From: Phoronis australis
Lineage: Eukaryota; Animalia; Phoronida
DNA length: 64,000 nt
Assembly (NCBI GenBank): GCA_002633005.1
Contig: NMRA01000049.1
Location: forward strand, 716,321 to 780,320
Direction of reading: 5' to 3'
Position 1 is the first letter of the stretch. Every line of letters starts with the position of its first letter. The position numbers were made by a program, and so were the translations under genes. Under the pieces are notes generated by a model. That model searched no databases. It was not told the origin of the DNA and saw only the letters and a program-made list of their open reading frames with translations. This document shows, piece after piece, positions 11,934 to 62,160 of the stretch.

Positions 11934-12188
11934 TCCATTGACTTGGAACCCGCTTATCTCCGTCGCCAGCGGCCGGACTGAGACATCACGAAAATAAAGG
12001 AGCCGGGTTAGTCTGCCGCCAAAGTTGAAAATCAAACTTCCAGTCATGAAAATACTAGACTAGTGAACCAAAAAATAAAGTGTACATGAATATTTTGGCG
12101 AAAACACGGCAAAATTGCAATCTTCTTACCCTTCGGGGCAGCTAAGCCAGGTTCGCCTTCCACAGAACAGTACAGGGCAATAATGTAT

Positions 12189-12194
12189 ACACAC

Positions 12195-12278
<84 letters not shown>

Positions 12279-12306
12279 TGTATGTATATATATATATATA
12301 TATATA
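12189..12306. repeat. (CA)n(TA)n compound microsatellite
   Basis: Directly visible. Confidence 0.97.
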
Positions 12307-30379: not shown

Positions 30380-31110
30380 GGTTCAGTTCTTCAATTTTTC
30401 GCGAAATTGTGTCCGTCTGAAGTTGTTAAATAGAAGTGAATTGAAATCACTATTAATATTGTGAAGAACCCTGTAAGTATAAATATTGGTGTTTTTTGTT
30501 CTAATGTATGAGAGTAACACCCAGTTAAGTAAGTCGATTAAAGAAGAAGACATCAAACAATTCAATACCGACTTAACTGTCAATACCATCAACGTACCAG
30601 ACATTGTTGTGGGCATTAAAATCACCTAGGATTAAAGTGGAGACATCAGAAAAAAGTCTACTGAAAGAAGAGTTGTACTTCCTTCATTCAACGGGGATTT
30701 GAGAAGGAGACCTGTAAAACTCCATTACATAATTTCTTATTATTAACGAATGTGCCTTCCGAACATTTTGGGAGTAGTGTATGAATGTGTTTGTGAACGA
30801 TCTCACGTGGCATGAACATATACAATGAGACCCTTACTCAGGTTGGTGTGACAGGCACTCTTGAATACAAATATCATACAAGAACTTCAGATTGTCGGGT
30901 GTCAAATTGACGGACTCACATATAGCTGCATTTCTATAATTGCCTTTGATTACACTTTGTTTTAACTTCAAAATTTAAGGACTGGAAAAGTTGTTTGCTT
31001 TGATTCTGTTGATATTTGAGAACAAGATGTTGAATGTGCCGGGCTTGGTTGGGCCTGGATATGACTCAATGTCACCACAGCATAAGGGATCTGAAATAGA
31101 AGACCTACCA
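30380..31110 (-). mobile_element. Second 2A-APE LINE relic, related to 17100-17415
   Basis: CCGDIESYPGP..FNILFSNINRIKANNFS, then degenerate APE motifs FYRSPSQ and LGDFNAH. Confidence 0.65.
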
Positions 31111-32409
31111 GTGGCCTTAAAATAGTTAATAATAAATGTCCTGCCACAATATGGGCGGTGCAGCACTGAAAAAAGTGGGGCCTGTATCCTCCTAGCATCC
31201 CATGGTGCACCGCCCATACACCATGGGAGGCGCAGCACGGAAAAGTGGGGGGCTATAGCCCCCACCCAGCCCCCCATGAATGTGCCAACTCTTCCAAACC
31301 CCTGGGATACACAATAACGCGCGGCGATGCAGAACGCCATATCATCATCCGTAATTATCACAGAGCACATAATAAATACGATCGGCGCGATAACCCATCA
31401 AAACATGAGCACTTTAGGGGACAACAAAGCATTGGTAAGGAATATTTTGAGACCGAGTTTTAGTAGTAGAAGGTTCGAATTTCCTTTTTATCCAGTTAGA
31501 CATGCAAAATGCAAGTTTAAAGAGATTCCGTGGAGAGCGCTAACAGTCCACTGACCATGGAGCTACTAGAAAAATAACGTAGTAGATCTTGTAACGTTTC
31601 CAACGCTACAATTTGAATTTCCAATGGAAATCTGGCGTGTGGCACTCCAAAAATTATAACATATAAGGTTGCCAAGGATCAGGAACATCCTATAAGTACG
31701 GACAATGGAGTTTGAATCGGTAGAAATTCAAACTCCATTTGCGTATTCTGGCTAATTGTACATTCTGTGACTATTCCAAAACGTTGATACAACACGTTCT
31801 ACAAGAAAATCGCAAGCACCTGTTTTTGATAAAAGAACCTGAACTACTACACGAGTCCACGGTTTCGAGTCGGACTTACGTAGGGCATGCGCACTAAAGG
31901 TAAAGAACTCGGGGGAAACAATATTGCATCGCGGACTCTACGGGATCTCGACAATGAAATGCACATTTCTCTGAAAATAGGGAGTGAATGGCGAAAACAG
32001 AGTTTCATAATAATTTATGCAATCAAATGGGAATACTGGGAGATTGTTTGGACACAACCTTTACCCTCTGAGCTCGGCTACGTTGCGGAGTGGATGCTGG
32101 GGTTATCCATAATAGTAATATTTAATTGTGATCTAAATACTATTAACACTTCAATTGAAATAATTTCAAGACGATTTTATGCTGTATCGAGGGCTCGCTG
32201 ATAATACCAATATGACAGTGATTGGTCTTGGGGGAAAAGCAACCTGTCTTGCAAATGATCAGGTTTTTCCGAGAGCACACACGGGCGCGAGCGCGCCCAC
32301 ACACACATACATTTATATATATATATATATATATATATGCATATGCATGTACATGCGCATATATATTTATGCTTCCCAATACGTATGAATGAATTTCGGT
32401 TATCGACCG

Positions 32410-32500
32410 GCGGTCCCGGTAGCTCAGCGGACTTGAGGGTCTGTACCTTTAGCAGAAGATCCTGGGATGGAGCCCCAGTCAGAACAGAGATCTTTTCAGC
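32410..32500 (+). mobile_element. Possible tRNA-derived SINE head
   Basis: A-box-like TAGCTCAGCGG and a degenerate B-box-like GGATGGAGCCC at tRNA-like spacing. No full cloverleaf. Confidence 0.3.
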
Positions 32501-33022
32501 CTTAACTATAGGTCACGTGATGAGACTAACATACAGGGTGTATGATTCTGACTTAAAACATATCTTGGACATTTCAATTTGTCACTGAGGTAACTGAAAC
32601 ATAATGAGGACGTCATTGGTGACGAACACAAGTGCCTGGCGTATTCCGTGAAAACCTCGATGTAATACATGTACGTCCATCGACACGACTGCGTAATGCA
32701 ATCTTGAGGTCTAAAAGTTTAGGTCATTCGAAAACGAAAGCATTTGCGAATAGACGCAATATCGTCGTTTTAACGAAAATTAGCCAAATGGTGTAATAAC
32801 GTCCCATTAATTGACAAAATGAGTAAGCAGATAGGCTCAAAACATTAAAATAGCTGTGAAAAGATTGAAAATAATACTATTCTTCTGCCATTATACTGCC
32901 AATTATTTTTGGCATAAAATGCGCCAAAATCTGACCAAGTTTGACAAAGTACTGTCGAAGACTGTCCACTTTATCTTGGAAACTACTGTACTCTTTAAAA
33001 TACACTGTATGAAGCGTTGCAT

Positions 33023-36000
33023 ATGGGAACTATCTCTTTAAAAGACGTAATTATTCCAGGTATGAACAGCGATGAAGGTAAGGAGTCTGATCACGGGAGG
33101 GCTTACGATGGTGAAGTCTTCGAAATCAGCCGAGAAGATTGTTCCATGATAGCCGACATTGTGTCACCTTTTGGCTACAGCACAGCAGAAGCATTGGTAT
33201 GTATTGCATATGCAGTACTCATCCGCTACGAAGGTGCAGACAAACCTCCTTCTATTTCATTGGCATTTGGCTCTCCTGGACGAGATCAGAATGATACTGA
33301 CGAATCTTTTAGTTGCGACAAAAAGGCAATCGCCGATGAGGAATATTCAACAGCTCTTTTTCCATGTGATGTCAATAGCTCTATTTCAGACATGCTTTTG
33401 TCCCAGCGTCTCACGTTTGACAAATGGCCTGAAGCGCACTCGAAGTTCAACCGCAGCAGCCCCAGCGCATACATGGCGTTTGACTTTCCACGCGACTTCA
33501 ACCGAAGCAGTCAATCCAACCAGTATGAAGTTAAGCTCAATTTGACCCACCAGTTCAACGGAGGCTACTCCTGCTCAGTACGACAAAGCACAAAGGGCTG
33601 CGGTGACCATGTGACGAGATTTCGAGATCATTTTCTGACACTGCTTTCGCAAGTCCACTGTTCTGAAAATCTTAACCTACTCAGCACACCAATTCAAACG
33701 CAGGAAGAGAAACAATTGATGGCTAAGTATAACGCAACTGACAAGTTCTACGAAAATAGTACATCACTTATTCACGAGCTTTTCGAAGAAAAAGCTAGGC
33801 AACATCCTGACGAAGTCGCTATTTGTTGTGCTGAACAAAGTCTGACTTACAAACAACTAGATGAACAATCGACCAGGCTTAGTCATAAAATACTATGCGC
33901 CATGGGTAATGCGTTTTCAAGTCGTTTAGTTGGTATAAGCGTTGATGCATCAATAGATATGGTGATAGGTTTGTACGCCATCATGAAAGCTGGTTTTGCC
34001 TATGTACCGCTTGATCCAAGCTACCCTGAAGAGCGACTAAGTTACATGATTGAAAACTCCAAAGTAAGTCTTGTAATTGCCAAACAATCAATTGTTGGCC
34101 TACTCAGGAATTGTTGCCAAACGGTGCTTTGCCTTGAGGATGTTTTGGTAGAATCTGCCGAAGAAAGAGTATTTGAAAAACAAATTGTCAATCCCGATGA
34201 CTTGGCTTACGTAATATACACGTCTGGATCCACTGGGAAGCCAAAGGGTGTGATGGTGAGTCACCGAAACGCAGTTAACACTATTCTGGATATCAACGAC
34301 AGGTACTCTGTGGCAGAAAAAGACAAAATACTTTTGGTTGCGTCACTCAGCTTTGATCTATCTGTATATGATATATTTGGTATCCTAGCTGCAGGGGGCA
34401 CACTAGTCATTCCTGTTCCAGAAGTTCGCGGAGTCCCAGACCCCAATTGCTGGTTTGAAACCATGAAGAAGCACAGTGTAACAATCTGGGACTCCGCACC
34501 GGCTGTTCTAAGTATCTTAATGGAATTTATTCTTTCTGAAAATGTTTCACTGCCATTTTCCTTGCGGCTATGCATGCTAAGCGGCGACAGAATACCGCTG
34601 AACCTCCCCACCCAGTTGCAAGATATGGTTCCGGGAATTCAAGTCATGAGCCAGGGAGGTGCAACCGAGGGATCAATATGGTCTATTTATTATCCGATCC
34701 AAAGCGTCGACGATGACTGGACGACCATACCGTATGGCATGCCACTTTCCAATCAAAAATATTACGTTCTAGACGAATTCCTAAATCCAGTACCTACTTT
34801 AGTTATAGGAGAATTGTTCATAGGTGGAACAGGTGTAGCCATGGGATATATAAACAATCCTAAAATTACAGAATACCGATTCTTGCCCAACCCTTTTGTT
34901 GAAGGAGAGCGAATCTATAAAACTGGAGATCTAGGCAGATTACATCCTACAGGTTACATCGAATTCTGTGGGAGAATAGACAACCAAGTTAAAGTACGTG
35001 GTTTTCGTGTTGAGCTGTCTGAAATTGAATCAGCTTTGATTAACCAAGAAGGTGTTGCTGACGCGTTAGTCATGAAGGTCCAGGAAAGGCTTGTCGCTTA
35101 CATCATTTGTGACCAAAATGTTCGTCTTGTCGAAGCCGATCTGCGACAGAAAATTGCTGTTTGTCTTCCGTCATACATGGTCCCTGCATTTTTTGTATTC
35201 ATGCATTCCTTTCCTGTAACTGCTAATGGGAAAGTGGACCGACAGGCACTGTCTGAGGTAAACTTTAGTCAAAAGAAGGACGAGGACACGGACCCTTCTC
35301 TTCCTGAAAAATCCACATTAGCAATCAAACCGTCGTTTACAGATAGGGAATACCTTTTAGCTCAAGTATGGAACGAAACGTTTAATGTTGATTTAGACGA
35401 ACTTTCGCCTTCATCATCTTTCTTTGAGATTGGAGGGGATTCCATCTCTGCTATGACTGTTGTCTCTGCAGTGCGGAAGAAGAATTTTCGGATATCTGTG
35501 CAGCAGGTTTTGGGTCACCCTAGGCTTTGTCAACTTGCTATGGTAGCAAAACCACTTGGGAGTGTTCAAAAGAGCAGGTTCCAGGCGAATGAACCTTTAA
35601 CACCTTATGTTCAACTTACTCCAGCCCAAATTTGGTTTTTTGAACAAGATTTTATAAACCCTCATTTCTGGAATCAGTCGTTTCTTCTTCAACCAAAGAA
35701 AGAAATTAGAGCCTGTCAACTGAAGGTAGCCTTAAATCGTCTGATTTGTCAGCACGAAATGTTAAGATGTACGTACTCTCAAACATCAGATGGTGGTTGG
35801 GTACAGACAATTAACGATATAAAGACCCCGTTCTTTAAAAACAAAACACTAGAGAACTTGGAAATGCTTAACGACGAGTTGGAAAGCTTAAAATCTTCTC
35901 TAAACATACACAAAGGTCCCCTATTGGCAGTTGGGCTGTTTAATGTTGGTGATGTGCAGAAACTTTATGTAACCGTTCACCATCTGGTTGTTGACCTTGT

Positions 36001-39000
36001 TTCATGGCGTATTATCCTCGAAGATCTTGAAAGAATGTATGAAGGACAAGAGACTGAAATGCCGAGTATGTCATTTCAAAAATGGTCATCACAATTAAGG
36101 CAAATAGCCGTGCCCTTAATGCGCGATGAGTGGCCGAAAGAAACCGAAGCCTCACCACTGCCTGTAGATGTGGGAAGTAATCTAATCCCTACGGCTAGCT
36201 CTAGAAAGACAATTGTTACAGTGCTTGATCGCAACGTAACCGCTGGTTTGGTGTCATCTGCAAATACTTCTTTTAAAACCAACACCAATGACTTTTTGAT
36301 CGCATCTCTAATTCTAGCATACAACGAGTCATTTGGGTTGGAGAGTCTTCAAATTGACGTTGAGGCACATGGTCGAGAGCCATGGGATGACTCCGATGAC
36401 ATTTCAAGGACTGTTGGCTGGTTCATGACAATGTTTCCACTGACGCTAGAAATCTGCCAGGGGCCATCAAACGAGAAAACTATGGAAAATACGCTAAAAT
36501 TAGTAAAAGAAAAGATTAGAAATATTCCAAAACATGGAATGCCATTTTGGCTCTTAAAGTTTTTGAAGAATTCAGATGAAACGGAAATTGAAAAGTCAGA
36601 CGTACTTTTTAATTATTATGGCCGACTCGATCAAATTCAAACCAAAAGTACTCTATGGGAATTAGATGATGATTATCCGTGTGGTGAGGATGAGTTTAGC
36701 TCAGATGAAAAGCTGACACACAAGGTTGTCGTTGAATGTAGCCTCAAAGATGAAAAACTCTACATGAAGATGTTTTACTGCACTGATATCCACGAACAAA
36801 AGACCATTGAATCGTGGATGGAGAAATGGAAAGAAAACATAATCAAACTGGTATCGTACTGCGGAAGAGATGACGTCTTTGGCTATACACCATCAGACTT
36901 CCCGTTGCTGAAGCTTTCACAGTTCCATTTAGATGAGCTGCTGTCCACCCGACTTGCACAATTAAACCTAGCGACCGAACAATTATCCGACATGTATCCA
37001 TGTACACCGACGCAAGAGGGTTTTCTGTTTAGACTTTTGCAAGATACCTCCTCTTACGTAGTGCAGAGGTCATGTACCCTCAACGGCTCAGTCGATCAGG
37101 GCAAATTACAAACCTGCGTTTATAAAATAATTTTAAGACATGACATCTTACGAACTCGGTTTATTGCTGACAGATTAAATGGGTGCATGCAGATCGTATG
37201 GAAAACCTTCGAACCCCAATGGACGATTGAAGACTGGTCTGACCTTAAAAGAAGCGAATGTGCTCAAAGAGAGATTGAATATCTACGGCATGATCGACAC
37301 TCGGGGTTCAATTTCACAGAGCCAATGCTAAGGTTTGCACTTTTCAGAACATGCAAAGAGACATACCGTTTCATTATAACTTCTCATCACAGCATAGTGG
37401 ACGGACAAACGTGTTCACTGGTTCTTCAGGAAATATTTATGGCGTACAGTGATGCAGTGCTTCCGGACACACCGGTATTTAAAGAATATGTCAGAGAACT
37501 GATGGACTATAAGTCGTGTAGTTACAAAGCAGAGGGATTTTGGAGAGAAGAACTGAACCAACTACCCGATCGTGGAAACCTTCGTTTCTTGGCCCCAGAG
37601 GTTCCCCAAAAGGGTTATGATGTTATTCACCACTCAGCATTGAACGGAAAGGTTGGTGAAATTCAAAAGTATGCCGAGCGACATGGGATCTCAGTTGCTG
37701 CCATGATCTGTGCATCTTGGGCTTACGTAATCAACAAATATTCGTGTGACCCAAATGACGTCATTTTCGGTTTTGTTGTGTCTGGTCGTGGAACCTCGCA
37801 TATTGAAAACGTTAACAGGTTAGTTGGAGTAACAACAAATACATTGCCCTTCAGAGTAAAGATTCATAACCATCACGTGGCGGAGTGGCTAGACTACGTA
37901 CAGAAAAAGATGGTGGCTATTATTGAACATGAAAAATCATCACTGACAGACATTCAGCAGTGGTGCGCATTGACGCCGGATGACAAACTCTTTGAAACAC
38001 TTGTCTCATTTAATGCCATGAACAGGGAAACGGAGATTTCTCTAAAATCTCATGACATTGAGGTCTGCAATGTCTATGACCATGAATTTACAGAGTACCC
38101 CCTGACTTTAGATATTCTTCAAACAGCTAATGCTATCGAAATTAAAGCTATTTATAACAAAAGTATTATCGACGCGGCAGCAGTTGTCCAAATCCTTAAT
38201 CAGCTAGAAAGAGCCATGTGGTGGATAGCAACTGCGTCAAAGGAAACACGAATAAGCGAGTTTGACATTGTGAGCCCTGAGGAGCATCTGGTGTTAGAAA
38301 ATTTGAATCCAATAGATAACTATAATGCCCAACTCGGGCATTTCAAAGGTGTGCAACACCTATTTGAAAGAATGGTTGAGCTTAATCCAAAAGAGCAGAA
38401 GGCATTAATAATGGACGATGAGTCGCTAACCTATAGAGAACTCAACTCAGCAGCTAATGCTATAGCTATTCATCTCCGATCTCTTGGCCTTTCACGTGGT
38501 GAGAAGGTTGGACTTCTCATTGATCGAGGGATACCCATGGTTGTCGGAATGCTGAGTATCTGGAAGGCTGGAGGCGCCTTTGTTCCTATAGATGCTGCAC
38601 AGCCAATGGATCGTGTGTTGTTTATATTAGAGGACTGTGGATGTCGATTTGTCTTTAACTCCAGTTCCATTGACGCAAAATCGCTACCGCAAAAGCACAC
38701 TTACATTTGTTTAGATAATCACCTTCTTGCTGCGTACAAAAACGAAAATGTGTGTAACCTTGAGTGTGTACATGACGCACGTGACCTTGCATACATGATT
38801 TACACCTCGGGTACAACTGGGCGACCAAAAGGTGCTATGGTTGAACATCGTGGGCTAATCAATTTCTTAATGTATAAGCCTGGAGGTGTTCTCGAAGTGA
38901 CTCCTCAAACAAATGTGATGCAGTACTTTGCTGTCGGATTCGACGGTGCTGTCTTGGAGGTGTGGACAACACTTTGCCATGGTGGATGTCTTTTCATTCC

Positions 39001-42000
39001 TTCTGGTGACTTCACAAAGACTATGAAGATAGTCGACGCTGTTGGAAATACACCTTCTACTCTGGCTATTCTGAACCCTGACGAGTATTCTAACTTAAAA
39101 CTTGTTTTTGCCGGCGGTGAGCCATGTTCCTCCACAATGGTAAACGTATGGGGTAAAAATCGAGTTCTATTAAACGGATATGGACCAACAGAATGTAGCA
39201 TTATGTCCCACAGTGGTCGATTGCAGCCATATAAACGAGTTACAGTTGGAAAGCCTCTACCAAATACCAAAAGTTACATTCTTGACAGTAATCAGCGACC
39301 TGTTCCTCCGAACATGACTGGTGAGCTTTTCATTGGAGGAGTCAATGTTGGAAGAGGTTACCACAATAGACCAGATTTGACAGAGGCTGCTTTCCTTGAA
39401 AATCCCTTCGATGTTGGACGAATTTACAAAACAGGTGATTTGGCAAGATGGTTGGAAAACGGAGAAATTGAAATCATAGGACGAATTGACCATCAAGTCA
39501 AATTACGAGGCAAACGTATCGAACTCGAAGAAGTTAGGAGTGCTATTGAACGTCTTCCGGGTGTCACACAAGCACATGTCCTTGTTCAAGATAAGCAGCA
39601 CATCGTAGCATATGCTCTGACTTCCACTGGAGTCAGCCAAGCCGACCTCCTCTGCTCCTTAAAAAAGAAACTTCCCAACTTCATGGTACCAACAGCAATA
39701 TTTTGCATGAGTAATTTTCCTTTGACAGCAAATAACAAGATTGATCAACGATCACTACCGAGGTTTGAACCCCAAACCACTCATTACATGGGAGCAACCC
39801 CGTCTAATAATCTGGATAAGTTGATTCTTAATTGTTACAGGGATGTCGTTGACCCAGGTTTTAACATGGAAGATGATTTCTTTGAGCTTGGTGGACACTC
39901 CCTTTCAGCAATAAGGTTAAAATCGATGCTTGCAGATAATACAGGCTTAGACGTTTCCATGGTCGATGTAATGAACTTCACCACGCCGTTTGACCTGGCA
40001 GCAGAGTTAAACAACAGAATTTTATTTCCACGAAAGAAAGTACAGTCAGTATCCATCCTACCAAAAACGTGTTCAGTGGAGGGAGACAAGATCATCACAG
40101 CCAAAACGTCCTGTCGGCAAGAGCAAATGTGTTTATTGTATGAACTAATACCGAGTAGTCCAGTGTATAATGTTACTGTAGTTCTTGAATTCCGTGGAAT
40201 CTTGGACGTTGGATTTCTAGAACAATCCATTAAAAGCATAACGACAGTGCATAGTTCGTACAGAACATCTTTTAAGAGGTCAGTTGACAATTCATTTATT
40301 CAAATTGTCACCCCAATTCAAGACTATGAACTGAATTTCAGCTTTTACGATTACGCGGGAGAACAAGGTAGCTGCCAACAAAAGGCACGTGAGCTTTTAT
40401 ACAGAGAAGCCGCAAAACCATTCGATCTTTATTCCGTGCCGTTGGCCAGATTTGTCCTAGTCAAGCTTTCCAACGAAGTTCATCATTTGGGCATATTTAT
40501 GCACCACTCTGTAACTGACGGCGGCTCGCTAAAGATAACCATTGACCACTTAGCAGAATACTATGCTTCCCTAGTGAATAATTGTCAGCCAAACATTCCA
40601 CAGCAGAGATTAAACTACATTGATTACAGCAACTGGGAGAATAAGTTGCTCGAAAGCGGTGAAATTGAAAGACAAATACAGTTTTGGAAAGATAAGTTGG
40701 AAAACGTTCCCAATATATTAGACTTGCCTCTAGACAGAGCACGACCTGCTATTCCAACGTATCAAGGCGAGACTTTGTTCTTTGACATTCCGGACGATGT
40801 CTCAGAAGATTTGCTAAAGTGCTCTCTAGAATGCGGAGGTACACTCTTCACATCGCTTGCAACTGTATACGCATTATTGATTCGTATCTACTGCCAATCT
40901 GATGACGTTGTTGTTGGAGCGTTTTTCTCAGGAAGACACAATCCTGGTGTCGAAAATGTAGTAGGCTACTTTGTGAATACACTTCCTCTTCGAATTCAGT
41001 TTAATCAGCAGGCAACTTTCACATCTTGTTTGACGGATGTAAAGAACTTAATGCTCGAGGTTCTTGATAATCAGGACGTACCTTTTCAGAAAATTCTCGA
41101 GTCCTTGAACGTGCCACGTGACACGTCATATCACCCTATTATTCAAGTTGCTACTGTGCTTCAAGAAGGTATCACAAGCAGACCCTTGGTGGACGGACTT
41201 TCCATGAAAGCACAAGCTTTTGAGCAATTCACAGCAAAATTTGACTTGAATTTAGAATTTGTAAGACATCAAAACGGGAATCTTAGTGGACAGTTTGTTT
41301 TTAACACCGACATTTTCAACCGCTGTACTATACAACGAATGAGTGAACATTTGTTGTATTTGTTTAGTATGTTGACAAAAAGCCGAGACATTCCATTGGC
41401 TAGCCTTGACATGCTACCACCAAGTGAAACTGATCTCATCAGGTCATTCAATACATCTGGGGAATGCTGTAGACTCCACATACACCAACAGTTTGAGAGG
41501 CAAGTGGAATTGGTACCAGACAGCATTGCAGTAGAGCAAATAGATCGACATATAACGTACAGAAGTCTTAACGCCGCTTGCAATAACTTGGCGCGGAAGC
41601 TACGCGCTGCTGGTGTTGTGCCTGACACCGTAGTTGGTCTGATAGGAGAGAGAAATTTGGAGTGCGTTGCTTCCGAGATGGCAATTTTGAAGGCTGGTGG
41701 AGCAATACTATTAATTGAAGCATCAGCTCCTCGAAATCGCATCGACTTGATGTTGGGTGAAACCGATTGTAAAGTGGTTGTAACCACAAAAGGAATAAAA
41801 CTAACTGGACTTCTTGATACATTCCGAGGAGAAATAATCTTGGTTGACGTAGACAAGTATACTACACGTTGTAACGTTGACACCATCGAAGAAAACGACC
41901 ATCAAAATTTGGAAAACGTTGTAAATTCGAGTCACCTGGCATACATAGTCTTCACTTCTGGAACGACTGGTAAACCAAAAGGAGTCATGATTAACCATTG

Positions 42001-45000
42001 GGGATGCCAATGTTTAATTCCTCGGCTATGTGAAGCCTATTCCATTACACATGGCACAAGAATGACGCATTTCTTTAACATAATGTTTGACGGGGCGTAT
42101 CAGGAAGTATTCATGGCTTTGACAAGTGGGGCAACCCTGGTGCAACGAGAAGAAAACTTCTTAAATACTTTAAAAAATGTGGATGTTTCTTTGATGTCCC
42201 CTTCAGTTCTTGCGTCTTTGGACCCTGAAGACTTTCCCAATCTGAAAAAGGTAATTGTAGGTGCCGAAATACTTCCACAGTCTACAGTGGCTAGATGGAA
42301 AGACCACGTGGAGCTTTATAACGAATACGGTCCATCGGAAGTAACTATTATGTGTACCCTTGGGTTAACAAATTTCAACGAAAAGGTGACCATTGGCAAG
42401 CCAATCACTAATTGTACAGTGAATATTTTAGATGGCAATCTAAAGCGTGTTCCCATTGGAGTCAAAGGGACGGTGTACATTGGGGGCAACGGAATTGCAA
42501 GGGGTTATCTCAAACGACCTGACCTAACTAACAAAAAATTCATCAACAACCCTTTCGGCAAAGGAAAACTTTACAATTCTGACGACATAGGTTATTGGAC
42601 TGCAGATGGCCAGATCGTCCTTGCAGGTCGAAGAGATAGACAAATCAAATTACGAGGCTTTCGAATAGAGCTTGATGAGGTTGATCATGCAATGCGAAGT
42701 GAGAAGGGAATTTCAAATTCTGCTTCTGTCGTAAAAAATGACATGCTTGTGGGGTACGTGACGCCTGACATAGGCAATTTGGGAGTACGTGAACTAAAGA
42801 AGAGTCTTCAAGACAAGCTTCCCCACTACATGGTACCGTCAGCGATTGTTGCTCTCTCGAAATTCCCCATGTCAGCGTCGGAGAAAATCGACTACAAACG
42901 TTTGCCTGAACCTTCTTTCATCGAGTCTGAAATACTCACGGCGAAAGAAGGAATTCTCCTTAAAATTTGGAGTGACGTTTTGCAAATTGAGTTATCGAGG
43001 ATTAAGACTAGTGACTCATTCTTTTACTTAGGCGGCGATTCCATTTCGGCAATGAGGGTATTCTCCCTTGGAAGAAAGAGTGGGTTACGCTTTACAGTTC
43101 AACAAGTCTTTCAGTCCAGAAGTCTTTCTCACCTTGCACATGTTGCAAAATATGCTGAGAAAATGAAAGCTGGTAAAAAAGGTGAACAGGTGGAGGTTTC
43201 AGGACATTTGCCATTGACCCCCATTCAAGAATGGTTTTTCGACTTAAACCTTCGCAATCGCAACTGTTTTAATCAATCACTGCTTCTAAAGTCATTGTTA
43301 AAAGTGGACCCAACACACCTTCAGAATGCCATCAATGCACTTGTCAGACATCACGATATTCTGCGCGCTTTCTTCTCGTTTAAACCAGATGGACGTGCAG
43401 CGCAAGAAATCATGTCTGTAAACGATGCACCAATACCGAAATTGATTCTCAAGAGAATTCCTGAAGACAATCTGGAAACTGAGATGACCAGACTTCAAAA
43501 TTCGTTAGATATAACGTCCGGTCCACTCCTCGCTGTTGGTCTGTTTGATATCGAGGGTAATCGACAGTACATATATATCACAATTCATCACTTAGTCGTG
43601 GATCTTGTTTCTTGGCAAATTATCTTAGAAGATCTCGAAACATTATACCGAGGAGATCTTCTCCAGCAGAAAACGTCTTCATTCAAGGAATGGGCAGAGC
43701 TTCTCAAGTCCGACTATTTTTTTTCCTTTGTTCGCGACGACTGGCCAAGTTTAGAACCAAGCAATCCTTTAAAATTGGATTATGTTCCACAGAACATAGA
43801 TAACATCAAAACCGACAGTGTTGAATTCGAACAAACAGAGTTAGACAAAGAAACAACCAGCAAATTACGCAGTCTCAGAGGGACACGTGGACACGACGAT
43901 ACTTCAATTAATGATATTCTTCTGACAGCACTCATGATAGCGTACAATGAATGGACTGGAGAATCAGTGATGTCCATTGAGCAGGAATGGCATGGGAGAG
44001 AGTCTTGGACAGACAGGCTTGATGTGTCTCGTACTGTCGGCTGGTTCACTGCCATGTATCCCGTAACGTTGTCATTGCACAATCACACAAACGGAGTACT
44101 GGATCACCTTGAAGAAACAAAGCGACGAATTCGAAATATTCCTGATCACGGTAGGCTATATGGAGTATTGAAATATCTAAAGAAAGACAATGATCCAAGG
44201 TTTCACCAAAAAGTTGACATTGTATTTAACTACCATGGAAGTTCAACAATGTATTCTAAAGAGAATAGTCTGTGGGAGGTATGCGATATTGGTGCTTACA
44301 CGTTCAAAAATCGTTGTGATTATGAAGAAGTTAGTCACAAGCTCGGAGTTGAATGTTATATTTCTCAAAATTGCCTTCATGCAAATTTTCTGTACAGCAA
44401 AGATCTTCATCGAGCAGAAACCGTTCGGCTAGTTGCGCAATCGTGGAAGAAAGCACTTCAAAATATCGTCAACGCACTTCAGTTGAACTCAAATATTACT
44501 GAAGTACCTTCGGAAAACCGTGGGATCAAATTTAAGACAGTCCAGGATGATTTGAAGAAAGCAAGAATCAGTTTGGATGACGTGGAAGACATTTATGCCT
44601 GTACACCCCTACAAGAGGGGTTGATATTTTCTTTACTCCGAGACAAATCATCTTATTTGGTACAATTATGTTTGACGATAAAAGGAAATCTCGATGTAGA
44701 AAGATTCAAATTGGCATGGAATGATGTGACAAAACGTCATCCCGCTCTTCGAACGAGTTTCGTCATTGATAGTAGAACACATACCTTGATGCAGGTAGTT
44801 AGACGTTATGCCGATCCACCTTGGAAAATCGGGTCGTGGACTGACTCTGCAGAAGCGGAGTCTCGTTTTGTAAACGAAGACAGAGCAAAAGGATTCAACG
44901 CAAATGATTATCTGCTTAGATTTACTTTAATGAAAACATGCCCTTCAAGCTATAAATTTATTTGGACTGTCCACCATTCAGTTGTCGACGGCTGGTCTTC

Positions 45001-46697
45001 CCCACTCGTACTGAGAGACGTCTTTGCGGCTTATCATTCAAACAATCTTTTACCCGCTCCTTCCTTTCGGTTGTTTGTTGAATATTGCCAATCGCGTGAC
45101 ATGTCTGCTGCACAGAGTTTCTGGTCCAAGTATTTGTCCAATCTCGAACCAATGCGAATCATAACTTTGTCCACAATGAAAGAGATTTCTGAATGTGACA
45201 ATCGACACGTGACACGCACATTTTCCACAAGAATGGATGAACTGAAGCAATTCGCCATGAAGAACAATTTAGCAATAACTTCGGTAATGTATGGTGCCTG
45301 GGCGCTAGTTCTGGATAGGTATTGCAGTAGTTATAGGAAGGACGTTGTTGTTGCAGTTGCTATAGCTTCACGAAGTGCCGAAATAGAAGGTATCGAAGAC
45401 ATGGTTGGACTGCTGCTTAACACATTACCACTTCGCATAACTTTCACATCAAATGAAGAAATGTCGCTAGTGGATTGGCTTAAGACCATACAGGATAGTC
45501 AAGCTGCAATAATGGCATATGATTATAGCAGTTTAGCTGACATACGGAAATGGAGCGGTCTTCCAAGAGATCAGTGTTTGCTTGATACCCTGGTCTCATA
45601 CGAGAATTACCCAGCTCTTGATAATGTGAGCAACCAAGAAATAGAATTCTGTGACATTCATGGATATGAAGAGCTTGATTTGCCACTCGGAATCGTTTTC
45701 AGTGACGATGACGAATATTTGACGACTAAAATTATGTACGACGGTAATCACATCAGCAATGAGTTAGCGCTCCAGATATCGGAACATTTGAACAATGCTT
45801 TGAATGAGATACTCTCTTCTGATAACTCACGATCAGTTTCTGATGTCGACATCAGTAAACCATTCGACATTGAACAGACAAGTGTGGCAAGTCGGTTAAT
45901 TGATAATGTGGCATGTTCACTTTATGTTAAGGATCAGTATGGCCGATCCTGTCCTAAAGACGTCATCGGGAAGTTGTTTATACAACACAATGCGACTGAC
46001 GATGAGGTTTACACTGGTGTTCTGGCAACATCACGAATCAATGGCGGCATAGTTGTTCTGGTAGGCAGCGAAGTCGACTCACTACCGGAAGAGCTGGCGG
46101 GGATTGAAGGATTACCAAGCTCTGTTATCTCCAAAAATAATGACGGTGTATTTGTCTTCGCTTCTCAAAAAGATCCCCTCCATTCTTCGCTATTAGAAGA
46201 GATTAAAAGGAAGCTTGAAAAAGTCAATTTACCAATGTTTGTTCTACCAGTTGACTTCGCCGTTGTTACTGGTGATATTCTTAAAGATATGACAGAAGTG
46301 CCCCCAGAAGTCTCACGAGCGGATTCCAAACAGATATGGCAAGGATGTGACTTTTCGGAAACGTTGACAACCAAGGAAATAATGCTTCGGGATATGTGGG
46401 CAAAGGTTCTGAAAATGAACTCAAGCGAGGTCAAACTCGACCATTCCTTCTTCGACCTTGGAGGCACGTCAATCACGGCTATAAGTCTGGTTTCACTTGG
46501 TGAGAAAAGAGGTCTACAGTTTCAATTATCGGACGTAATGCAGCTGCAAACACTTGCAGAAATTGCCTCAGTTGCCGAGTTAAAGGTTGACGAGGGTGAC
46601 CTGTTGGTTTGTTTAAACACTGGCAATGTCGGCGAAGCTCCAGTCGTATACATTCACGCCAGTGACGGTGGTGTATCGTCGTTTTCGTACATCAGTG
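33023..46697 (+). CDS. Multimodular NRPS, exon 1 (C remnant-A1-T1-E1-C-A2-T2-C-A3-T3-E2-C-vestigial A-T4-start of TE)
   Basis: Uninterrupted 4573-codon ORF. A3 motifs YTSGSTGKPKG (~34216), YTSGTTGRPKG (~38801), FTSGTTGKPKG (~41951). Carrier motifs GGDSI (~35432), GGHSL (~39890), GGDSI (~43031), GGTSI (~46460). E motifs HHLVVDLVSW, ExHGRE and SRTVGWF, each twice. C motifs HHSIVDG, HHSVTDG, HHSVVDG. The start is uncertain: first ATG 33023, second ATG 33062 just after a possible acceptor ttattccAG. The exon ends at donor AGTG|GTAAGT. Confidence 0.96.
33760..35250 (+). other. NRPS adenylation domain A1 (Cys-type family)
   Basis: SFDLSVYDIFG, TIWDSAP, LSGDRIP, GGATEGSIWS, YKTGDLGR, NGKVDR. These match the signature of Cys-activating domains from thiazoline-forming NRPSs. 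Confidence 0.85.
35330..36910 (+). other. NRPS T1 plus epimerization domain E1
   Basis: FFEIGGDSI (GGDS type precedes E domains), LTPAQIWF, HHLVVDLVSW, EAHGRE, SRTVGWF, FNYYG, YTPSDFP. Confidence 0.88.
36985..40020 (+). other. NRPS module 2: C (DCL-like), A2, T2
   Basis: MYPCTPTQEG, HHSIVDG, FGFVVSGR; A2 with NGYGPTE and YKTGDLARW; T2 FFELGGHSL. Confidence 0.88.
40100..44490 (+). other. NRPS module 3: C (LCL-like), A3, T3, E2
   Basis: HHSVTDGGS, LDLPLDRARP, VGYFVNTLPLR, QDVPFQ; A3 with NEYGPSE and QIKLRGFRIEL; T3 GGDSI; E2 LTPIQEWF, HHLVVDLVSW, EWHGRE, SRTVGWF. Confidence 0.88.
44580..46590 (+). other. NRPS module 4: C (DCL-like), vestigial A fragment, T4
   Basis: IYACTPLQEG and intact HHSVVDGWS. 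Then only eroded late A motifs (LYVKDQYGRSCPKDVIGKLFI, YTGVLATSRINGG, LPMFVLP) with no A1-A5 core. T4 FFDLGGTSI. Confidence 0.8.
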
Positions 46698-47253
46698 GTA
46701 AGTTCACGTTTGGAAAAATTATATGTGTGGGTTTGTAAAGCCATTGCTGTCGTATTAACTTAGCAGAACTTTGACACAACAAAGTGAGGACAAAATAGCA
46801 CAATTAGTTCTGGTTTCTGCCCAAATCATTATGAAACCCGCGCCTCATCGCCCGTATCACTTTTAGTGGAGTTGTGTTTTTTCATAAACTACATAAATGG
46901 TACAGGATTGGAAACGTGAGGACATTCACATCTTTTATCACCTTTATTGATTAATAGCTAGTTAGCACAGTGAGCCCCCGTCCGGTCGGACGGAACAAAA
47001 GCAACGGCTGCACCGGACCTCTGAAATCAAAATAATATCTCGTCGCCACTCATATTACAGTAGGTGACTTTTTTGGATTATTCGGAAATAAAAATACCGC
47101 ATCACGGCATTGATTATCAAAAAACGGATTTGTTACAGTCGGAGAATTACTATGATTATTATCAATAAGCTTGTTCTTGTTATTATTGTTACTAATATTA
47201 TTCCTTTTTATGTTGTTCTTCTTCTTATTATTATCATCGCTGTTCATTCCTAG
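46698..47253 (+). other. Spliceosomal GT-AG intron (556 bp, phase 1) within the NRPS TE domain
   Basis: GTAAGT donor, pyrimidine-rich tract plus TAG acceptor, and an in-frame stop if unspliced. Splicing restores both frame and a continuous TE fold sequence. Confidence 0.9.
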
Positions 47254-47900
47254 GTCATCTTAAGAAGCACCCTGTGTATGCCTTCCGGTTTCTGGTTGGT
47301 AGCACACCGTTCGAGTCAATTCCTCAACTTGCCTCCCTGTATGTGGAGCGAATGCAACAGTTGGACTTCTTTGACACAGACACAGTCTATACACTGGTTG
47401 GATACTCATCGGGAGCAGCTATCGCCTTTGAAATGGCACTGCTGCTTCAACAGATCAACCGAAGACCGCAAAAGCTTGTTCTTCTAGACGGATGTCCAGA
47501 TTTAAACAGAAACACGTATATGAGAATTATGAAGTGTACGGAAGAACAAATGGCTGGTCATGAGAAATGGCTTCGAGATACGTGGAAACAAAAAGGCCTC
47601 GACGATGATGATGCAAAGGTTGGACTATCGCTCTTCCGAGAAACTGTGAGCGTGTACGCCGCCTACTTCCCTTCGACGATTTATCATGGAGATGTTACAT
47701 TTGCACGTGCCACGGACTTACTAACAGATGGGCCATTAGCGGAAACGCTTGTTGAGATACAAGAGCAAGGGCGCGACTATGGTACTCAACAACTGTGTTC
47801 TAAAACAGTGCGAGTTGTTGACGTTGACGGCGACCATTACACAATGATGAGAGATGAAAAACAGATGATAGCGAAGGCTATTGCCGGAGCATTAGAGTAA
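47254..47900 (+). CDS. NRPS terminal exon: remainder of the type I thioesterase domain
   Basis: Acceptor ttcattccTAG|G at 47251-47253. A phase-1 splice joins HASDGGVSSFSYIS-G-HLKKHPVYAFRF in frame with the 47274 ORF. Contains the nucleophile elbow GYSSG, LVLLDG and the GDHYTM histidine motif; stop TAA ends at 47900. Confidence 0.92.
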
Positions 47901-47911
47901 ATATATGCATG

Positions 47912-47947
<36 letters not shown>

Positions 47948-48294
47948 CTGTAGGTTTTCCATTTGCGGTATTTAATCAAAGACACTAGAAATAATATTGT
48001 AGTTTATAGGTCATAATCACGAGGTCGTCACTTTTCAGACAATAGTTGACAGTAGTTGATTTCAGCAACTAAAGTTATTGGCAATGTAATGTATGAAGAT
48101 GGAAACATTATGTCTAAAAACACTTTACTGGGAGATAAAACGTAAGGGTAGTGATACACAAGCGATGGTGAGTCATAAGTGGTGATTAGCCATATGCTTA
48201 GTTTTATATAAGTGATGATAAGCCATGCATTTGGTATATAAAAGTGGTGTTGAGGAGTATTTAGCTTATCAGTCGTGGTGAGATATATATTTAG

Positions 48295-48325
<31 letters not shown>

Positions 48326-48384
48326 TTATATAGGTAGAGATGAGGAATATATTTAGCTGTATATAAGTTGAGGCATGTATTTGG

Positions 48385-48620
48385 CAATAAGTATACGTGG
48401 TGATGAGCAATATATTTTGCTATATATCAGTAGCGAGCCACATATTTGGCTACTTATACGTAGTAATGAGCCATATATTTGGCTATATGTGTACGTGGTG
48501 ATGAACAATATATTTAGGTATATATCAGTAGCGAGCCACATATTTGGCTACGTATACGTAGTAATGGGACATATATTTGGCTATATGTATACGTGGTGAT
48601 GAACAATGTATTTAGTTATA
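48385..48620. repeat. Minisatellite with 98-bp period built from three ~33-bp related monomers
   Basis: tacgtggtgatga recurs near 48394, 48492 and 48590; catatttggcta-type subunits lie in between. Confidence 0.82.
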
Positions 48621-51600
48621 TACATAAGTGGTTAGGCTATTAGAAAAACAAAGACGTTGTAACACCTGAAGACGACCGGAGAAATGACCGACAGCTTCGC
48701 CAGGCCAATATAGAGGTTGGTGTATGTAGACCAAGAAATTTTAGAAATGGTGTTACTGTATCACCACCTCAAAACGTTTTCAGGAAGTCAAAATTACTTT
48801 GTGCCAACTAGTATTGTTACTGTTCACTTATTGACAAAGATATTTGAAATCAAACGTAGGACGTTTTGGGATTAACTGGTGATGAGTCATATACATGGAT
48901 AAGTACGGATGTGGTGACGATAATATATTAGTGGTAAGGAGTCACAGACAGACAGACAGACACACACACACAAACACACACACACACGCACACACATATA
49001 TAAGTGGTCATGGGTTGCACAGATGCAATAGTGAGTCATATTTGGTGATGAATCGCATATAAGTTGTGGGTACTATAAAGTTAAGAGGCACAGCAATGAA
49101 GTCTTTAGCAAAGGAAGCTCGTTTTGGGCAATGACAAAGCTAATCGACTGAGGTACATGCGGCATATCGTTTAGTTAGTCATTGGTTGTGGAGGAAATAA
49201 ACATATTTGTAGGTGTGGATCAACGGGTTTTATTACAGCCTTTAATTAAAAAAATCGCTATAGCTTTTAATGTATAAGAGCACTCAGTACAAAGTAAAAA
49301 TACAAGATGAACCTACCACCTTGGCAAGTCAGTGAAAATACAGAAAATGAAGGCTAAATGCAACGATTGAGTTGTATAATTATACAGATGGTTACAAAAC
49401 CAACAGCGAAAAACTACATCAGCCCTGAAACGTCATTCATGAAATTTGAGACATCACTTTATCCCACACGCATTCAATAAGTCGAGTGGAATACAACCAT
49501 GTGATACTGCTTTCCATAATGCACTCCTGGGACAACTTTAACAATGCCCTGTGACATGGAAAGTTCAAAAGGTAGGTCAGTGTCGATTCGACATATTCAG
49601 TTCAATCATCAAACTTTCCCAAAATAGTTTAAAGCAATGAAATTGCAGCAGTATAAATAACACTCAGCATGCAGTCAGGTCCCAAACAGAACATTTGGAA
49701 CAAAGCTGTTAATAATATGACACTTCTGGCTCAGTTTTATTTGCTAAATATTATATCGTTTGCAACTTAGGCACCGATTCCTCGAAAGCTACAATGTTAA
49801 ATGTTGTTATTTAATCATTTTCAGGAAATGTCACAAGTTCAATGCACAGTTACCGGTGTTTTCATCTTTGTTATCTCTTTTCAAGTAATAAATGGTGGCA
49901 TTTAAAACTGTTTCTTTTAATAGAAAAGACTTGTAACGTAACGCCCAAGTATATACATGTCGGCCACCTCAACAGTCTGGGTGAATTATTTAAAAACCTG
50001 CCGAAAAAATGAAAGAAAATTAAGAATTCGAAGCGTATGGATAAATACAAAACGTATTTCGACTGGCGTAGATGAAAAATCTCGATCGATAAGCGGAATA
50101 ATGTCTCGTGGGATATTACTTCATGTACGCCACGCTCGGTACGTTTTGTGTGTGCATTCGTATTCGTAACTGTAGTACTTTCTTGTTTTTGATACGGTCC
50201 CCTATTTAGTATTTACATATTCAAGCAGGATAAGCAAAGCACATCGCGAGTAGACACGCAACAAGTCTGTAAATATGTATTAACATGATCTTGACTAAAG
50301 ACACATTTCGAATCACACAGCTTGGGATAGCACGAACATACAGATACATCCGAATTGAGGTACAGAAAAACCCAAACGGCTCAGGGACTTAAGTACACTA
50401 TGCGTGAGTTTAGGCCTATGCTCCTATATCCGAAGTAATGCGTTTTTCCAAAGAAAACATCATATTTGCGTGCTTTACATATAGGCGCATGCGCTTACGC
50501 AGCTGTGAGTCGTTCGTCTATTCACTGTCCATTCTTAGAACCTTTTATTATAATCGTTAGTCCTAATACGCCAACGTCTACCATTTGATAGTGTATAAGT
50601 CACGGTTGACTCGCTTAATTGTCTACAGCATTTCTCCTTGGTTTTGTTCTGGTGTTTTACATATAGGCACGTGCGCCCCATTGCGAGTACAGGCGCAACC
50701 GCATGTATAAGCGTAAGGACCTAGATAATGTAAAAATACATCTTAAAACGTTTCCAAATTCAAAAAAGCCTGCACCAGGGAGAATGCAATCTAAGGACCT
50801 ACGATAGGTGCACGAGATACCCGTTGTCGTTCTTCTGAGAATGCTGTAACACCTGAAGATAGCCGGAGAAATTACCGACCGAAACCTTGTTCCAATGTAA
50901 ATATGACAGAGGATGGTGTAAAGCTCCAAAAACGTTTAGAAATGATAAGATTATACGTGAAACGCTCGGGTAAAATCAAGAAATAAATTTCTAAACTAAT
51001 ATTTAAATTGAGAAAAATTGCGTTATCCATCACAAAATAGTAGACATTGACGAGTATTCCATTAACAGTAACTAGTAAATGAAAAGTACTAAGTTTAGAC
51101 AAAAAGCATAACGGGCTATGAATGGTAGACCTACCCACACAATGCTGTTAATAGTCCTACGGACACATCAATGAAGCTAAAGGAAACAAACGCAAATTCG
51201 GTAACCAGAACGTCCTTCCTAGAATATAAATGCGTGTAGTCAAGGTCCAAGCGCCAGAAATCAAAGCGAGATGCTGTGATGTTCTGTATTATCAGAAACG
51301 GATTTTACTCCAAAGTGACTAGATCGTTGGCCAGTACACAGACAAACTCATACATTGTGTTCGGCTTCAGGCCAAACACACGATGTTCTGGGCGACAGAA
51401 GAAGGTCTTCATTCGCCTCGTTTTCCTGTCTGGTGCCTCCCTGAACAAGAGGTGGTGAGTCAAGTGATCGCTTGGCTCGCATAACGCGAAGTTGTCGTGA
51501 GGACTCGATTGGGACCTCAGGGGTCTCACGCTCCACCGGCTAATTTGAAAAGGCTTTGTCCAGTCACGCGTTGTGGGTCATAAATCGAGATAATGATACC

Positions 51601-59699: not shown

Positions 59700-62160
59700 A
59701 GTTAAAAAGTACTGCTTAATTTTCTGTTCTGGCATCTGGTCAACTCTATGGGTACCTTCATGTTTCAAAAACACATTTCCAATCTTCCCATTTTTGTATC
59801 ATTAAATTTCCGTGTGTTTAACGAAGCACTAACCTGTACATTAAAACATACCCTTAAAAATTTTTTAAGACATCTTAAATTAGGTTTGACGTTAGCAAAT
59901 TTCATTTTAAAAATGAAAATTTTAGTTTGTAAAAGGAACAAATTCAAACTTCTATACTCTTTATTTTGAAGACCAAATGCAATGGTGGTTTTGTCTATTT
60001 CAAAATTTACTTGCATTGCAGTCATTAACCAGAGACGTGCCCCATGCCAGAAAGAATTAACATATTCACATTCAGAGAATAAATGTTCTAGAGTTTCGGG
60101 AAAGTATTTACAAAAAGTACAAGTATTTGAGTCCAGACATCTAATCTTATTTAAATAATAAGTAGTAGGTAGAATTCTATGCAGTAAGCGGAACTGAAAG
60201 AAAAGTAAGCTTGTGTCATTCATACATTCATGTGAAAGTTTGTAATAGAAATTCCACATCTTCTGTGATAGCGAAAATCCCAATAATTTGAATTTTTTGT
60301 GCCGATGGTATTATGTTATTTTTGCACAGAATATGGTAAGAATCCTGACATCCCTTTTTTGTCAAAATAATATTTTTTAGAGTAAAAGGTACAAGTGGTC
60401 CATATATCTTTTTTAGTATTAAGATTTTGGAAAACGTATTCAGATATTTTTTATTGCACTGACAATTGAATAATATTTGAGAAATCTGACATTAATCTGA
60501 TGAATCGTCTGGAAGAAGCTACCATTCCAGTCTAAAAAATCGTTCACAAATATTATACCTTTTTCAATGAATGACTAATCAATACAAGAACTGTATTCCA
60601 CCGTTATACTACTGTTGGCCCACACATTAATTAACACCGCATCTTCGTGACCTGAAATAGTTTGCTTGTGAACGAAAAGGCCCCAACAGTGGAAGCATTC
60701 TCTCCAAAAAGAGTTACAATTATCCGATCTAGTTAACCTATATTCTCCATAGTTCAATATTCCATCTCCAGCAAACCCGATATCTTTTTGCAACAAATAA
60801 GTCCATGGAGATGTTGTTAAAAAGAATCTTCTAATCCATGAAATTTTTAAAGACATATTAAATTTTCTGACATCAATCATCATCAATCCACCCTCTTCTA
60901 TGGATTTAATGAGTACTCCTCTTTTTATTTTATAAGGTTTTCCGTCCCAAATGAATTTAAAAGACAAAAGTTCCAATATCGGCAAAAGTAGAATCATTGA
61001 GACTTGGGAGCAACATTAGCAGATGTATAATTTTTGGAAGCATAAGTGACCTTTCCAAATATAGTCAGCTTTCTACGAGACCATATACAGTGTATTAATC
61101 AGATTCTTCATTTCCATTATTTTTGCATCAAAGTTATCTTTGGACATGGTTTGCAAGTTCACGCTGAAATTAATACCGAGAAGCTTAAAATCAACGTCAC
61201 CCCATTTTATTTTCCAACGCGTGCGGTGAAACGCTTCTTGAGATAATTTTCTACTTCCAATCCACACTTTGTTTTAGAATAGTTTATCTTCAGCCCCGAC
61301 ATCCCTGCATAGAACTCCAGGTTGTTCATAAGTGCTGCCAGGGATCTTGGACTTCCATCTGCATATTGTGTTATAACGAAGTTTTCTTCGTCGATTTTAG
61401 CACCTTTCACTTCAGGATCATGTTTAATCAATACTGACAAAGTTTCAGCACACAGTATAAAGATATAAGGGGAGAGAGGATCACCTTGTCTGCATCCGCG
61501 GTCTAGTATGAAGTCGCCTGACAGAAATCCATTTTTTGTATGACAGGGCACTTGGTTTATTATAAAATGTTCTAATATAAAGAATAATGTTGGCTTTGAA
61601 ATTATCCAGGACTTTGAATAAAAAGTCCCAGGAAACACTATCAAAAGCCTTTTCAAAATCTATGCATACAAGTAGTCCTGGAATGTTGTGTTTGTCTGTA
61701 CAACTCATAATATCATAAATTAGTGTTGTGTTCTCAGCCATAAGCCTTCCTTTAATAAATCCAGTTTGGGTATTTGCAATCAGTTTGTATAGAACTTTTT
61801 TAATTTTGTTTGCAACGTATCCCAAAGCCAGTTTGTATACATTATTCAATAAAGTTATTAGTCGGCAGTTTTTCAGAAACTGTTTCGACTTGTCTGGTTT
61901 TGGAATACATGTAATAATCCCAGTCCGTTGATTTGTGGACATTTGTCCCTTTTCAAAACTACATTTAATGAGCCGCAATACAAAATATTTTATGTCTTCC
62001 CAAAAGAACGTTAAAAATTCCATCGTAAATCCATCAGAGCCTGGACTTTTCTCGTTTTTTGTGTTTTAAAGCCTCAAATAATTGATCAATATCAATTTCC
62101 TTTTCTAGTTGGATTGTCTCCAACTCCAAAAGTACCGGAAACTGACAATGTCTGATTACA
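59700..62160 (-). mobile_element. Degenerate L1/Tx1-clade LINE ORF2 (RT plus zf-RVT)
   Basis: KSPGSDGF, LITLLNNVYK, QTGFIKGR, IDFEKAFDSVSW, RGCRQGDPLSPYIF, QYADG, FIWDGK..EEGGL, FQFRLLHRIL..CTFC..ETLEHLFSEC. Many frameshifts. Confidence 0.9.

Follow-up and report, generated by a model that had tools for sequence, protein, structure and literature searches.

The NRPS gene and its intron

The window, by which we mean the whole 64-kb stretch of DNA that was analysed, carries on its forward strand a gene for a nonribosomal peptide synthetase (NRPS). Its coding sequence is held by two stop-to-stop open reading frames (ORFs), one at 32999-46738 (4579 codons) and the other at 47196-47900 (234 codons). 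Within the first lies a giant exon of 13,638 nt (33060..46697), delimited with the help of the ORF and of sequencing depth in run X4, and within the second lies the last coding exon (47254..47900); joining 33062-46697 to 47254-47900 gives 4760 codons with one terminal stop and none internal. The intron between them is 556 nt long (46698..47253, forward strand, GT-AG, phase 1), with the donor G/GTAAGT at 46697/46698 and the acceptor TTCCTAG/GT at 47253/47254. Each frame contains 9-10 stops within the intron, GC content is 0.37 in the intron versus 0.42 and 0.46 in the exons, and the motif GTAAGT occurs only twice across 33060..46703. The unspliced frame halts 14 codons into the intron and would give a product without a release enzyme, because all three catalytic motifs of the thioesterase (TE), GYSSG, LLDG and GDHY, lie in the last exon.

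Eight sequencing runs were compared. One contig of run X4 (record 15; 2068 nt, depth 18.7) maps to 45545-46696 and 47253-47895 with 2 other letters, skipping exactly 556 GT..AG bases, and two records of run X1 (7 and 8) span the intron gap-free, as continuous DNA. We read X4, whose label "DNA?" is a guess, as RNA, because its depth is zero at 30428-31066 and 31706-32344, where X1 has 12-14, yet every coding-region bin is covered; this includes every bin of the giant exon, where one piece of 7907 nt has 1 other letter. The exact 46697/47254 joint is known from this one X4 contig, and no raw-read row among those listed for the RNA runs X5, X6 and X7 carries it. Reads of X5 and X6 over the gene are sparse, mostly of one orientation and mostly <95% alike, and runs X7 and X8 show almost nil coverage. 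With its GT donor, its AG acceptor with a pyrimidine tract, its presence in X1 DNA and its removal from the X4 contig, the intron at 46698-47253 is a real spliceosomal intron of U2 type, ordinary by itself. An earlier note, made from the sequence alone, had predicted both this phase 1 junction and a complete TE after splicing, and the X4 contig, the X1 records and the motifs of the last exon bear out both predictions.

The note had also described the intron as the only one, which is probably wrong, since X4 record 10 breaks off at an acceptor at 33059. Of this 1250-nt record, 1200 nt match 33059-34258 and 50 nt are left over on the 5' side, at a TTCCAG/GT acceptor (33046..33059, forward strand) with a YAG and a pyrimidine tract; the chance of an exon position falling at such an acceptor is about 2/100. 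A second intron 5' of 33060 likely exists. A donor candidate for the upstream exon at 29352 was rejected, as it sits in a repeat that reads run through. The first in-frame start past the acceptor is the ATG at 33062. At the other end, X4 record 15 extends 273 nt past 47895 (letters at 47996 and 48008) and marks the beginning of a 3' untranslated region (47901..48170, forward strand; its end is not fixed). About 470 nt beyond the stop codon is a minisatellite with a 98-nt period (48369-48632).

Genomic setting

The flanks of the gene contain reverse-transcriptase fragments of LINE type, a fragment of a THAP domain, which is typical of animals, microsatellites and dispersed repeats; no other gene family gave a match above the cut-off among the 107 other ORFs scanned in the window. 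Because of the reverse-transcriptase and THAP matches, the microsatellites and the lack of any other gene family in the flanks, the source is likely an animal genome, that of an invertebrate, with a size of perhaps a few hundred megabases. The earlier note had argued that a spliceosomal intron speaks against bacterial contamination, and we can exclude a contaminant on several grounds: the intron is spliced, the flanks are not gene-dense, X1 depth is alike in the gene (pieces at 7-11) and in the flanks (8-12), and there is no close bacterial match, the best A-domain identity to any database protein being 49%. That the window stems from an early-diverging fungus, or from some other non-animal eukaryote, with a large genome rich in repeats to which the NRPS would be native, seems to us very improbable. 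The nearest relatives of the NRPS are indeed such fungi (see below), but the THAP fragment and a TE resembling that of animal fatty acid synthase (FAS) point the other way, as do the single gene per 64 kb, the 556-nt intron and the 346-503 million contig letters per DNA run.

Several features of the flanks can be recorded here. The THAP fragment (6192-6488, reverse strand; PF05485, E 2e-11) lies inside a large degenerate inverted duplication (~4900-6600 versus ~7900-9600), of which there is a third copy at ~11000-13500. Two direct copies of 240 nt, 547 nt apart and 100% identical (11147-11386 and 11694-11933), reflect a recent duplication or an assembly artefact. The broken reverse-transcriptase fragments are at 1911-2869 (reverse), 20579-21082 (forward) and 59768-62065 (reverse), the second of them flanked by inverted-repeat arms at 19795-19854 and 22889-22948. 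High-copy short repeats that are abundant in the RNA runs occupy 28400-29540, 31151-31265 and 32405-32533. The last of these, 500 nt ahead of the NRPS exon, is SINE-like and has a tRNA-like head by eye, with no ARAGORN or Rfam match; neither program found anything in the window.

Domain architecture

Pfam and motif scans of the 4760-residue protein gave the order (C remnant)-A-T-E-C-A-T-C-A-T-E-C-(A remnant)-T-TE, with all domains encoded on the forward strand. The N-terminal remnant, the second half of a condensation (C) domain of 234 residues (33062..33763), had no Pfam match and scored 13.6 bits with our own HMM, against <=2.0 for 50 shuffles; compared with fungal N-termini, it gave no significant match (best E 0.11). 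It is followed by A1 (33770..35254; Pfam), a cysteine-type domain with the code DLYDMSQIW(K), obtained by alignment with bacitracin synthetase BacA, by the carrier T1 (35336..35554; Pfam, GGDSI) and by the epimerization domain E1 (35594..36883; Pfam, motifs HHLVVDL, EAHGRE and TVGWF), which in the tree falls among E domains and away from the C outgroup. C2 (36971..38284), which follows an E domain and is probably of the D-accepting type, is 31% identical to C4 and 21% to C3, and its best matches include the post-E C domains of P0175, a protein of Basidiobolus meristosporus.

The second module consists of A2 (38342..39760), which by alignment has the code DGLGFGGIM(K) and by deletion count and tree is of an early-fungal type with a 9-aa deletion, and of the carrier T2 (39791..40018; Pfam, GGHSL). 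Next come C3 (40091..41434; Pfam), which its similarity suggests to be of the L-L type, and A3 (41474..42907), with the code DGQLIGEIM(K) from the alignment and, in agreement with the tree, the same 9-aa deletion as A2. The A7 (YNSDD) and A10 (SEKID) motifs of A3 deviate, with Asp and Lys retained. The third module is completed by T3 (42926..43153; Pfam, GGDSI) and E3 (43196..44488; Pfam, motifs and E tree), after which C4 (44576..45853; Pfam) carries an intact HHSVVDG.

The fourth module has lost its A domain except for a remnant of 164 aa (45857..46348) from the C-terminal part, without the core and without the catalytic Lys motif. This remnant had no Pfam match and scored only 3.9 bits with our own HMM, and in the ESM Atlas it reached 0.92-0.93 to AMP-binding C-terminal clusters. 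T4 (46352..46582; Pfam) has GGTSI, with the Ser retained, and is 45% identical to T3. The first 36 codons of the TE (46589..46697; YIHASDGG), which alone gave no PDB match, end the giant exon, and the core of the domain, with GYSSG (47400), LLDG (47481) and GDHY (47829), fills the last exon (PF00975, E 1.7e-17). The intron thus sits 36 codons inside the TE, away from the T-TE border. The serine is intact in all four T domains, as is HHxxxD at each of its five occurrences; with its intact C, A and T core motifs and its release domain, the protein is a multimodular NRPS.

The backbone groups with NRPSs of early-diverging fungi

Regional protein searches returned bacterial and fungal NRPSs only, none named as animal, among the 53 and 120 proteins listed; the ranking was by total score, which favors long proteins, and closer short relatives may be missing. 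Single domains were compared with a set of 312 proteins, assembled from named proteins and an exhaustive search and without animal NRPSs. Within this set, P0175 of Basidiobolus meristosporus was the best match of E1, A2, C3 and C4, and a chytrid protein was the best match of A3; other close rows came from Tieghemiomyces, Dimargaris, Calcarisporiella, four chytrid genera and Aphanomyces. P0175 also opens in the same manner as the present protein, with a short N-terminus (C remnant), a Cys-type A, T, E and C.

In a tree of 85 A-domain rows (13 near-copies dropped; bootstrap not settled at 0.984), A2 and A3 fell within a clade of 28 rows together with 22 early-fungal and 4 oomycete rows (100/100), and A3 clustered with Calcarisporiella and chytrid domains (96/94). 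A1 was sister to the first A domain of Basidiobolus (100/90), inside a Cys clade whose 10 other rows are non-fungal or unnamed. In a careful LG+G4 tree of 49 E rows, from which 5 (2 long, 3 near-copies) had been left out, E1 and E3 clustered with 15 rows from fungi and oomycetes (100/93), the 26 other E rows lying outside this group, and a quick C20 tree agreed (SH-aLRT 99). No named bacterial row entered the A2/A3 clade or the E clade of these two trees.

Two sequence characters have the same distribution. Both A2 and A3 have 38 residues from the Asp of A4 to the next Pro, a 9-aa deletion; spans of this kind occur in 46 of 48 early-fungal domains (37-40 residues) and 8 of 8 oomycete domains, versus 32 of 1161 others at <=41 residues, four of the 32 belonging to a chytrid, in a count in which 420 of the 1668 A domains could not be measured. 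Of the early-fungal matches, 16 of 19 carry the E motif HHxxxD-L, as do all 4 from Dikarya, and 194 of 226 others have G instead of L. In these separate HHxxxD-L E domains, in the A-domain deletion and in tree placement, the protein is like the NRPSs of early-diverging fungi (Basidiobolus meristosporus, ORX93211.1; Dimargaritales, Calcarisporiella and chytrids) and of Aphanomyces. It differs from the early-fungal NRPSs in combining three A domains with a fourth module that lacks one, and identity to the fungal relatives is only 34-47%. Collectively, these data argue that the backbone belongs to a eukaryotic NRPS clade, with those of early-diverging fungi and Aphanomyces, rather than to a bacterial one. 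The placement does not prove a fungal donor or the direction of a transfer.

Within the clade, the A and E domains of Aphanomyces (P0294, P0231) nest among chytrid domains with strong support, which suggests a fungus-to-oomycete transfer of the same family.

We also weighed vertical inheritance, in which the backbone would descend from the common ancestor of animals and fungi and have been lost in most animals, with no transfer. E1 and E3 do not nest within the fungal E domains but sit next to the whole set, Dikarya included (81/62), and an AU test of fungal domains as one clade without A2 and A3 gave p 0.053, so that the nesting of A2 and A3 is not enforced; both results would fit such descent, as would the low identities to fungi. 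Suring 2023 (PMC10531068), in its available text, likewise argues that the scattered distribution among animals needs an early origin followed by loss. On the other side, A1 is sister to Basidiobolus alone within an otherwise non-fungal Cys clade, the same family clearly crossed kingdoms once, into Aphanomyces, and 13.6 kb free of introns would be hard to maintain for so long in an animal. We regard vertical descent as unlikely, though a serious contender.

A thioesterase resembling that of animal fatty acid synthase

The top 10 PDB matches of the last exon were pig and human FAS (35-44 bits), followed by polyketide synthase (PKS) TEs, and the best NRPS TE scored 22 bits; FAS again ranked first when the C-terminal half of the TE was searched alone. 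The match to the animal FAS TE (pig 2vz8, human 1xkt/4z49) comprises two segments, including YHGxV..RA and DY..Q.C...V.V..V.GDH; identity is low (44 bits), and the domain here stands behind an NRPS carrier domain, not an ACP. As controls, two bacterial NRPS TEs, chosen among the best-matching ones, ranked NocB first (66 and 72 bits); their FAS matches, confined to a short stretch, scored 25-36 bits. Among 316 stored proteins, a set without invertebrate FAS, the best NRPS TE reached 31.7 bits, which leaves FAS a lead of 12 bits. In the ESM Atlas, all TE clusters that matched were bacterial (0.94-0.96), and GYSSG-like motifs occur in Bacillus NRPS TEs too. No candidate passed for the TE among 1290 proteins of 376-2000 aa, and it matched none of 227 metagenome stretches and none of 76 metagenome loci. 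A single-sequence AlphaFold model of the TE (pLDDT 44) was left aside.

The fungal relatives inspected end differently from the present protein, in another type of hydrolase, in an E or C domain, or truncated, and by eye none of four whole relatives ending in a hydrolase or E domain has this type of TE. Three of the chytrid and Calcarisporiella NRPSs (P0173, P0183 and P0197) end in a serine-hydrolase domain that by eye is unlike the usual type I TE and that we take to be FSH1-like; release domains therefore vary across the clade.

The similarity ranking suggests that the TE was likely, though not provably, borrowed from the host's own FAS family. As the intron lies in a domain of seemingly other origin, it may have arrived with the TE instead of arising in a gene that had already been transferred. 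Mollusc FAS genes are intron-rich and mollusc PKS genes intron-poor (PMC10764717, available text); an inherited intron is therefore a real alternative to a gained one, and a giant exon cannot by itself tell when a transfer took place.

The earlier note had proposed horizontal acquisition followed by early gain of one intron. Its picture of a spliced, non-contaminant gene holds, but the acquisition-and-gain scenario does not stand as stated, given the likely 5' intron and an intron that possibly came with the TE. If the donor is taken to be a bacterium that supplied the whole gene, TE included, the giant exon, the separate E domains of bacterial type, the type I TE, the presence of bacterial rows in the Cys clade of A1 and the bacterial ESM Atlas clusters can all be cited in favor, and the available text of a study of Mortierella reports NRPSs that originated in bacteria and have each acquired nine introns (bioRxiv 2020.08.21.262279). 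The trees, however, do not depict a direct transfer from bacteria to the host, as the nearest relatives are eukaryotic: bacterial names are missing from the A2/A3 and E clades, the 14 short-type A domains (bacterial or unnamed) that were added as candidates group apart, 0 of the 76 metagenome loci was closer than the best stored match for any of eight domains, and the TE ranks FAS first. We consider a bacterial origin of the whole gene decidedly unlikely.

The reading that we prefer, with a probability of about 0.6, is that of a nuclear gene, spliced and likely from an invertebrate animal, encoding a 4760-residue NRPS with a backbone of early-fungal type and an intron-split TE that was likely grafted from the host FAS family. 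Splicing, domain order, intact motifs, tree placement and TE ranking are observed, and the substrate and product steps given below are proposals. More tentatively, and at less than even odds, the gene may represent a family of animal D-amino-acid peptide synthetases that came from an early-diverging fungus and was domesticated by a swap to the host FAS TE, the only coding intron being a fossil of the graft and the fourth module working without its own A domain.

Predicted product

Substrate codes were read with what we take to be the standard position numbering, under which the BacA rows yield their expected codes. The A1 code differs in 3 of its 9 positions from that for Cys, the A2 code describes an open, non-polar pocket, and the A3 code gives no clear assignment. 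A host phosphopantetheinyl transferase would prime the carriers; A1 would load cysteine or a close analogue, which E1 would turn to the D form, and A2 would add a bulky non-polar L residue. A3 would add a third residue and E3 would make it D, leaving a D-Cys-like, L-X, D-Y tripeptide on T3. C4 would then join this tripeptide to a fourth residue, which we propose is loaded on T4 by one of the three A domains or by a sister enzyme, given the loss of the A domain from module 4 itself; alternatively, T4 may merely relay the tripeptide. The TE is predicted to hydrolyze off a short linear D-L-D-L peptide, and removal of the intron would be required for this release because the three catalytic motifs are in the last exon. 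The peptide probably serves in defense or metal binding, which is a guess from analogy.

A-less modules served by the A domain of another module are known from capreomycin CmnI (PMC12400406, available text), which is likewise a C-T module with intact C and T motifs and no working A. Here, in contrast, module 4 lies in one chain with the other modules and still has an A remnant of 164 aa, and its loading by another A domain is our proposal.

Relation to known animal NRPSs

Multimodular NRPSs in animals are usually ascribed to bacterial transfer or contamination. The present NRPS is spliced, transcribed end to end and placed in a eukaryotic NRPS clade, and its gene lends itself to a direct test between a fungal source and a greater age for animal NRPSs. 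It may also be a natural case in which a host FAS domain completes an NRPS, and it could lead to a D-amino-acid peptide made by an animal.

The count of animal NRPS clusters in Suring 2023 (PMC10531068) stands at 199 over seven phyla, with seven clusters from a phoronid and with an echinoderm-mollusc clade, and the locus at 33060-47900 could be among them. Like the gene described here, those NRPSs are multimodular, sit in animal-like genomes and have related copies; in the available text of that study, A domains are compared among animals only, with no early-diverging-fungal link and no FAS-type TE, and the word "intron" has 0 occurrences. Rotifer NRPSs have mostly bacterial best matches (PMC11258130), and NRPS expansions in early-diverging fungi have been described (PMC7466969, PMC9866270, PMC6784888), as far as the available texts go. 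Animal NRPSs are thus already known; ancestry in the early-fungal clade and TE chimerism were not found in print, in that a search of titles and abstract openings, with most subscription papers outside it, returned no report tying an animal NRPS to that clade or to a FAS TE.

ACV synthetase (ACVS) of springtails, Plectus, fungi and bacteria is alike in having three A domains, one of them Cys-activating, E and TE domains near the end, and an occurrence in animals. It too starts with a C remnant. Its order, A-T-C-A-T-C-A-T-E-TE, differs from the A-T-E-C-A-T-C-A-T-E-C-T-TE found here, with two E, five C-family and four T domains, and isopenicillin N synthase (IPNS) had no match within the 64-kb window. 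The TEs of ACVS carry PPGEGGAESY and GWSFGG (PMC10531068, available supplement), both of which are absent here. The single-module animal NRPSs (Ebony, Sm-NRPS and mollusc FmtATR) have one A-T module and a non-C terminal domain (PMC11869996, available text), unlike this protein with its three A domains and its C domains.

Related copies of the gene

A second X4 contig (depth 20.4), with 15 other letters, joins 46690 to 47262, as do 8 reads of X5 and 2 of X6; the joint was found 0 times in X1, where a divergent piece starts near 47257. Because length and frame at this joint equal those of the present gene after splicing, it is that of a related copy spliced at the same place, and the intron is therefore likely older than the duplication that made the related copies. 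Among the coding differences in the rows chosen for listing, 19 of 24 are synonymous, and the related copies are under purifying selection. Runs X5, X6 and X4 show expression of at least one such NRPS copy, and probably several, ~86-93% alike across 33000-47900, which X1 contains too; the related copies seem to outweigh the one at 33060-47900 in X5 and X6.
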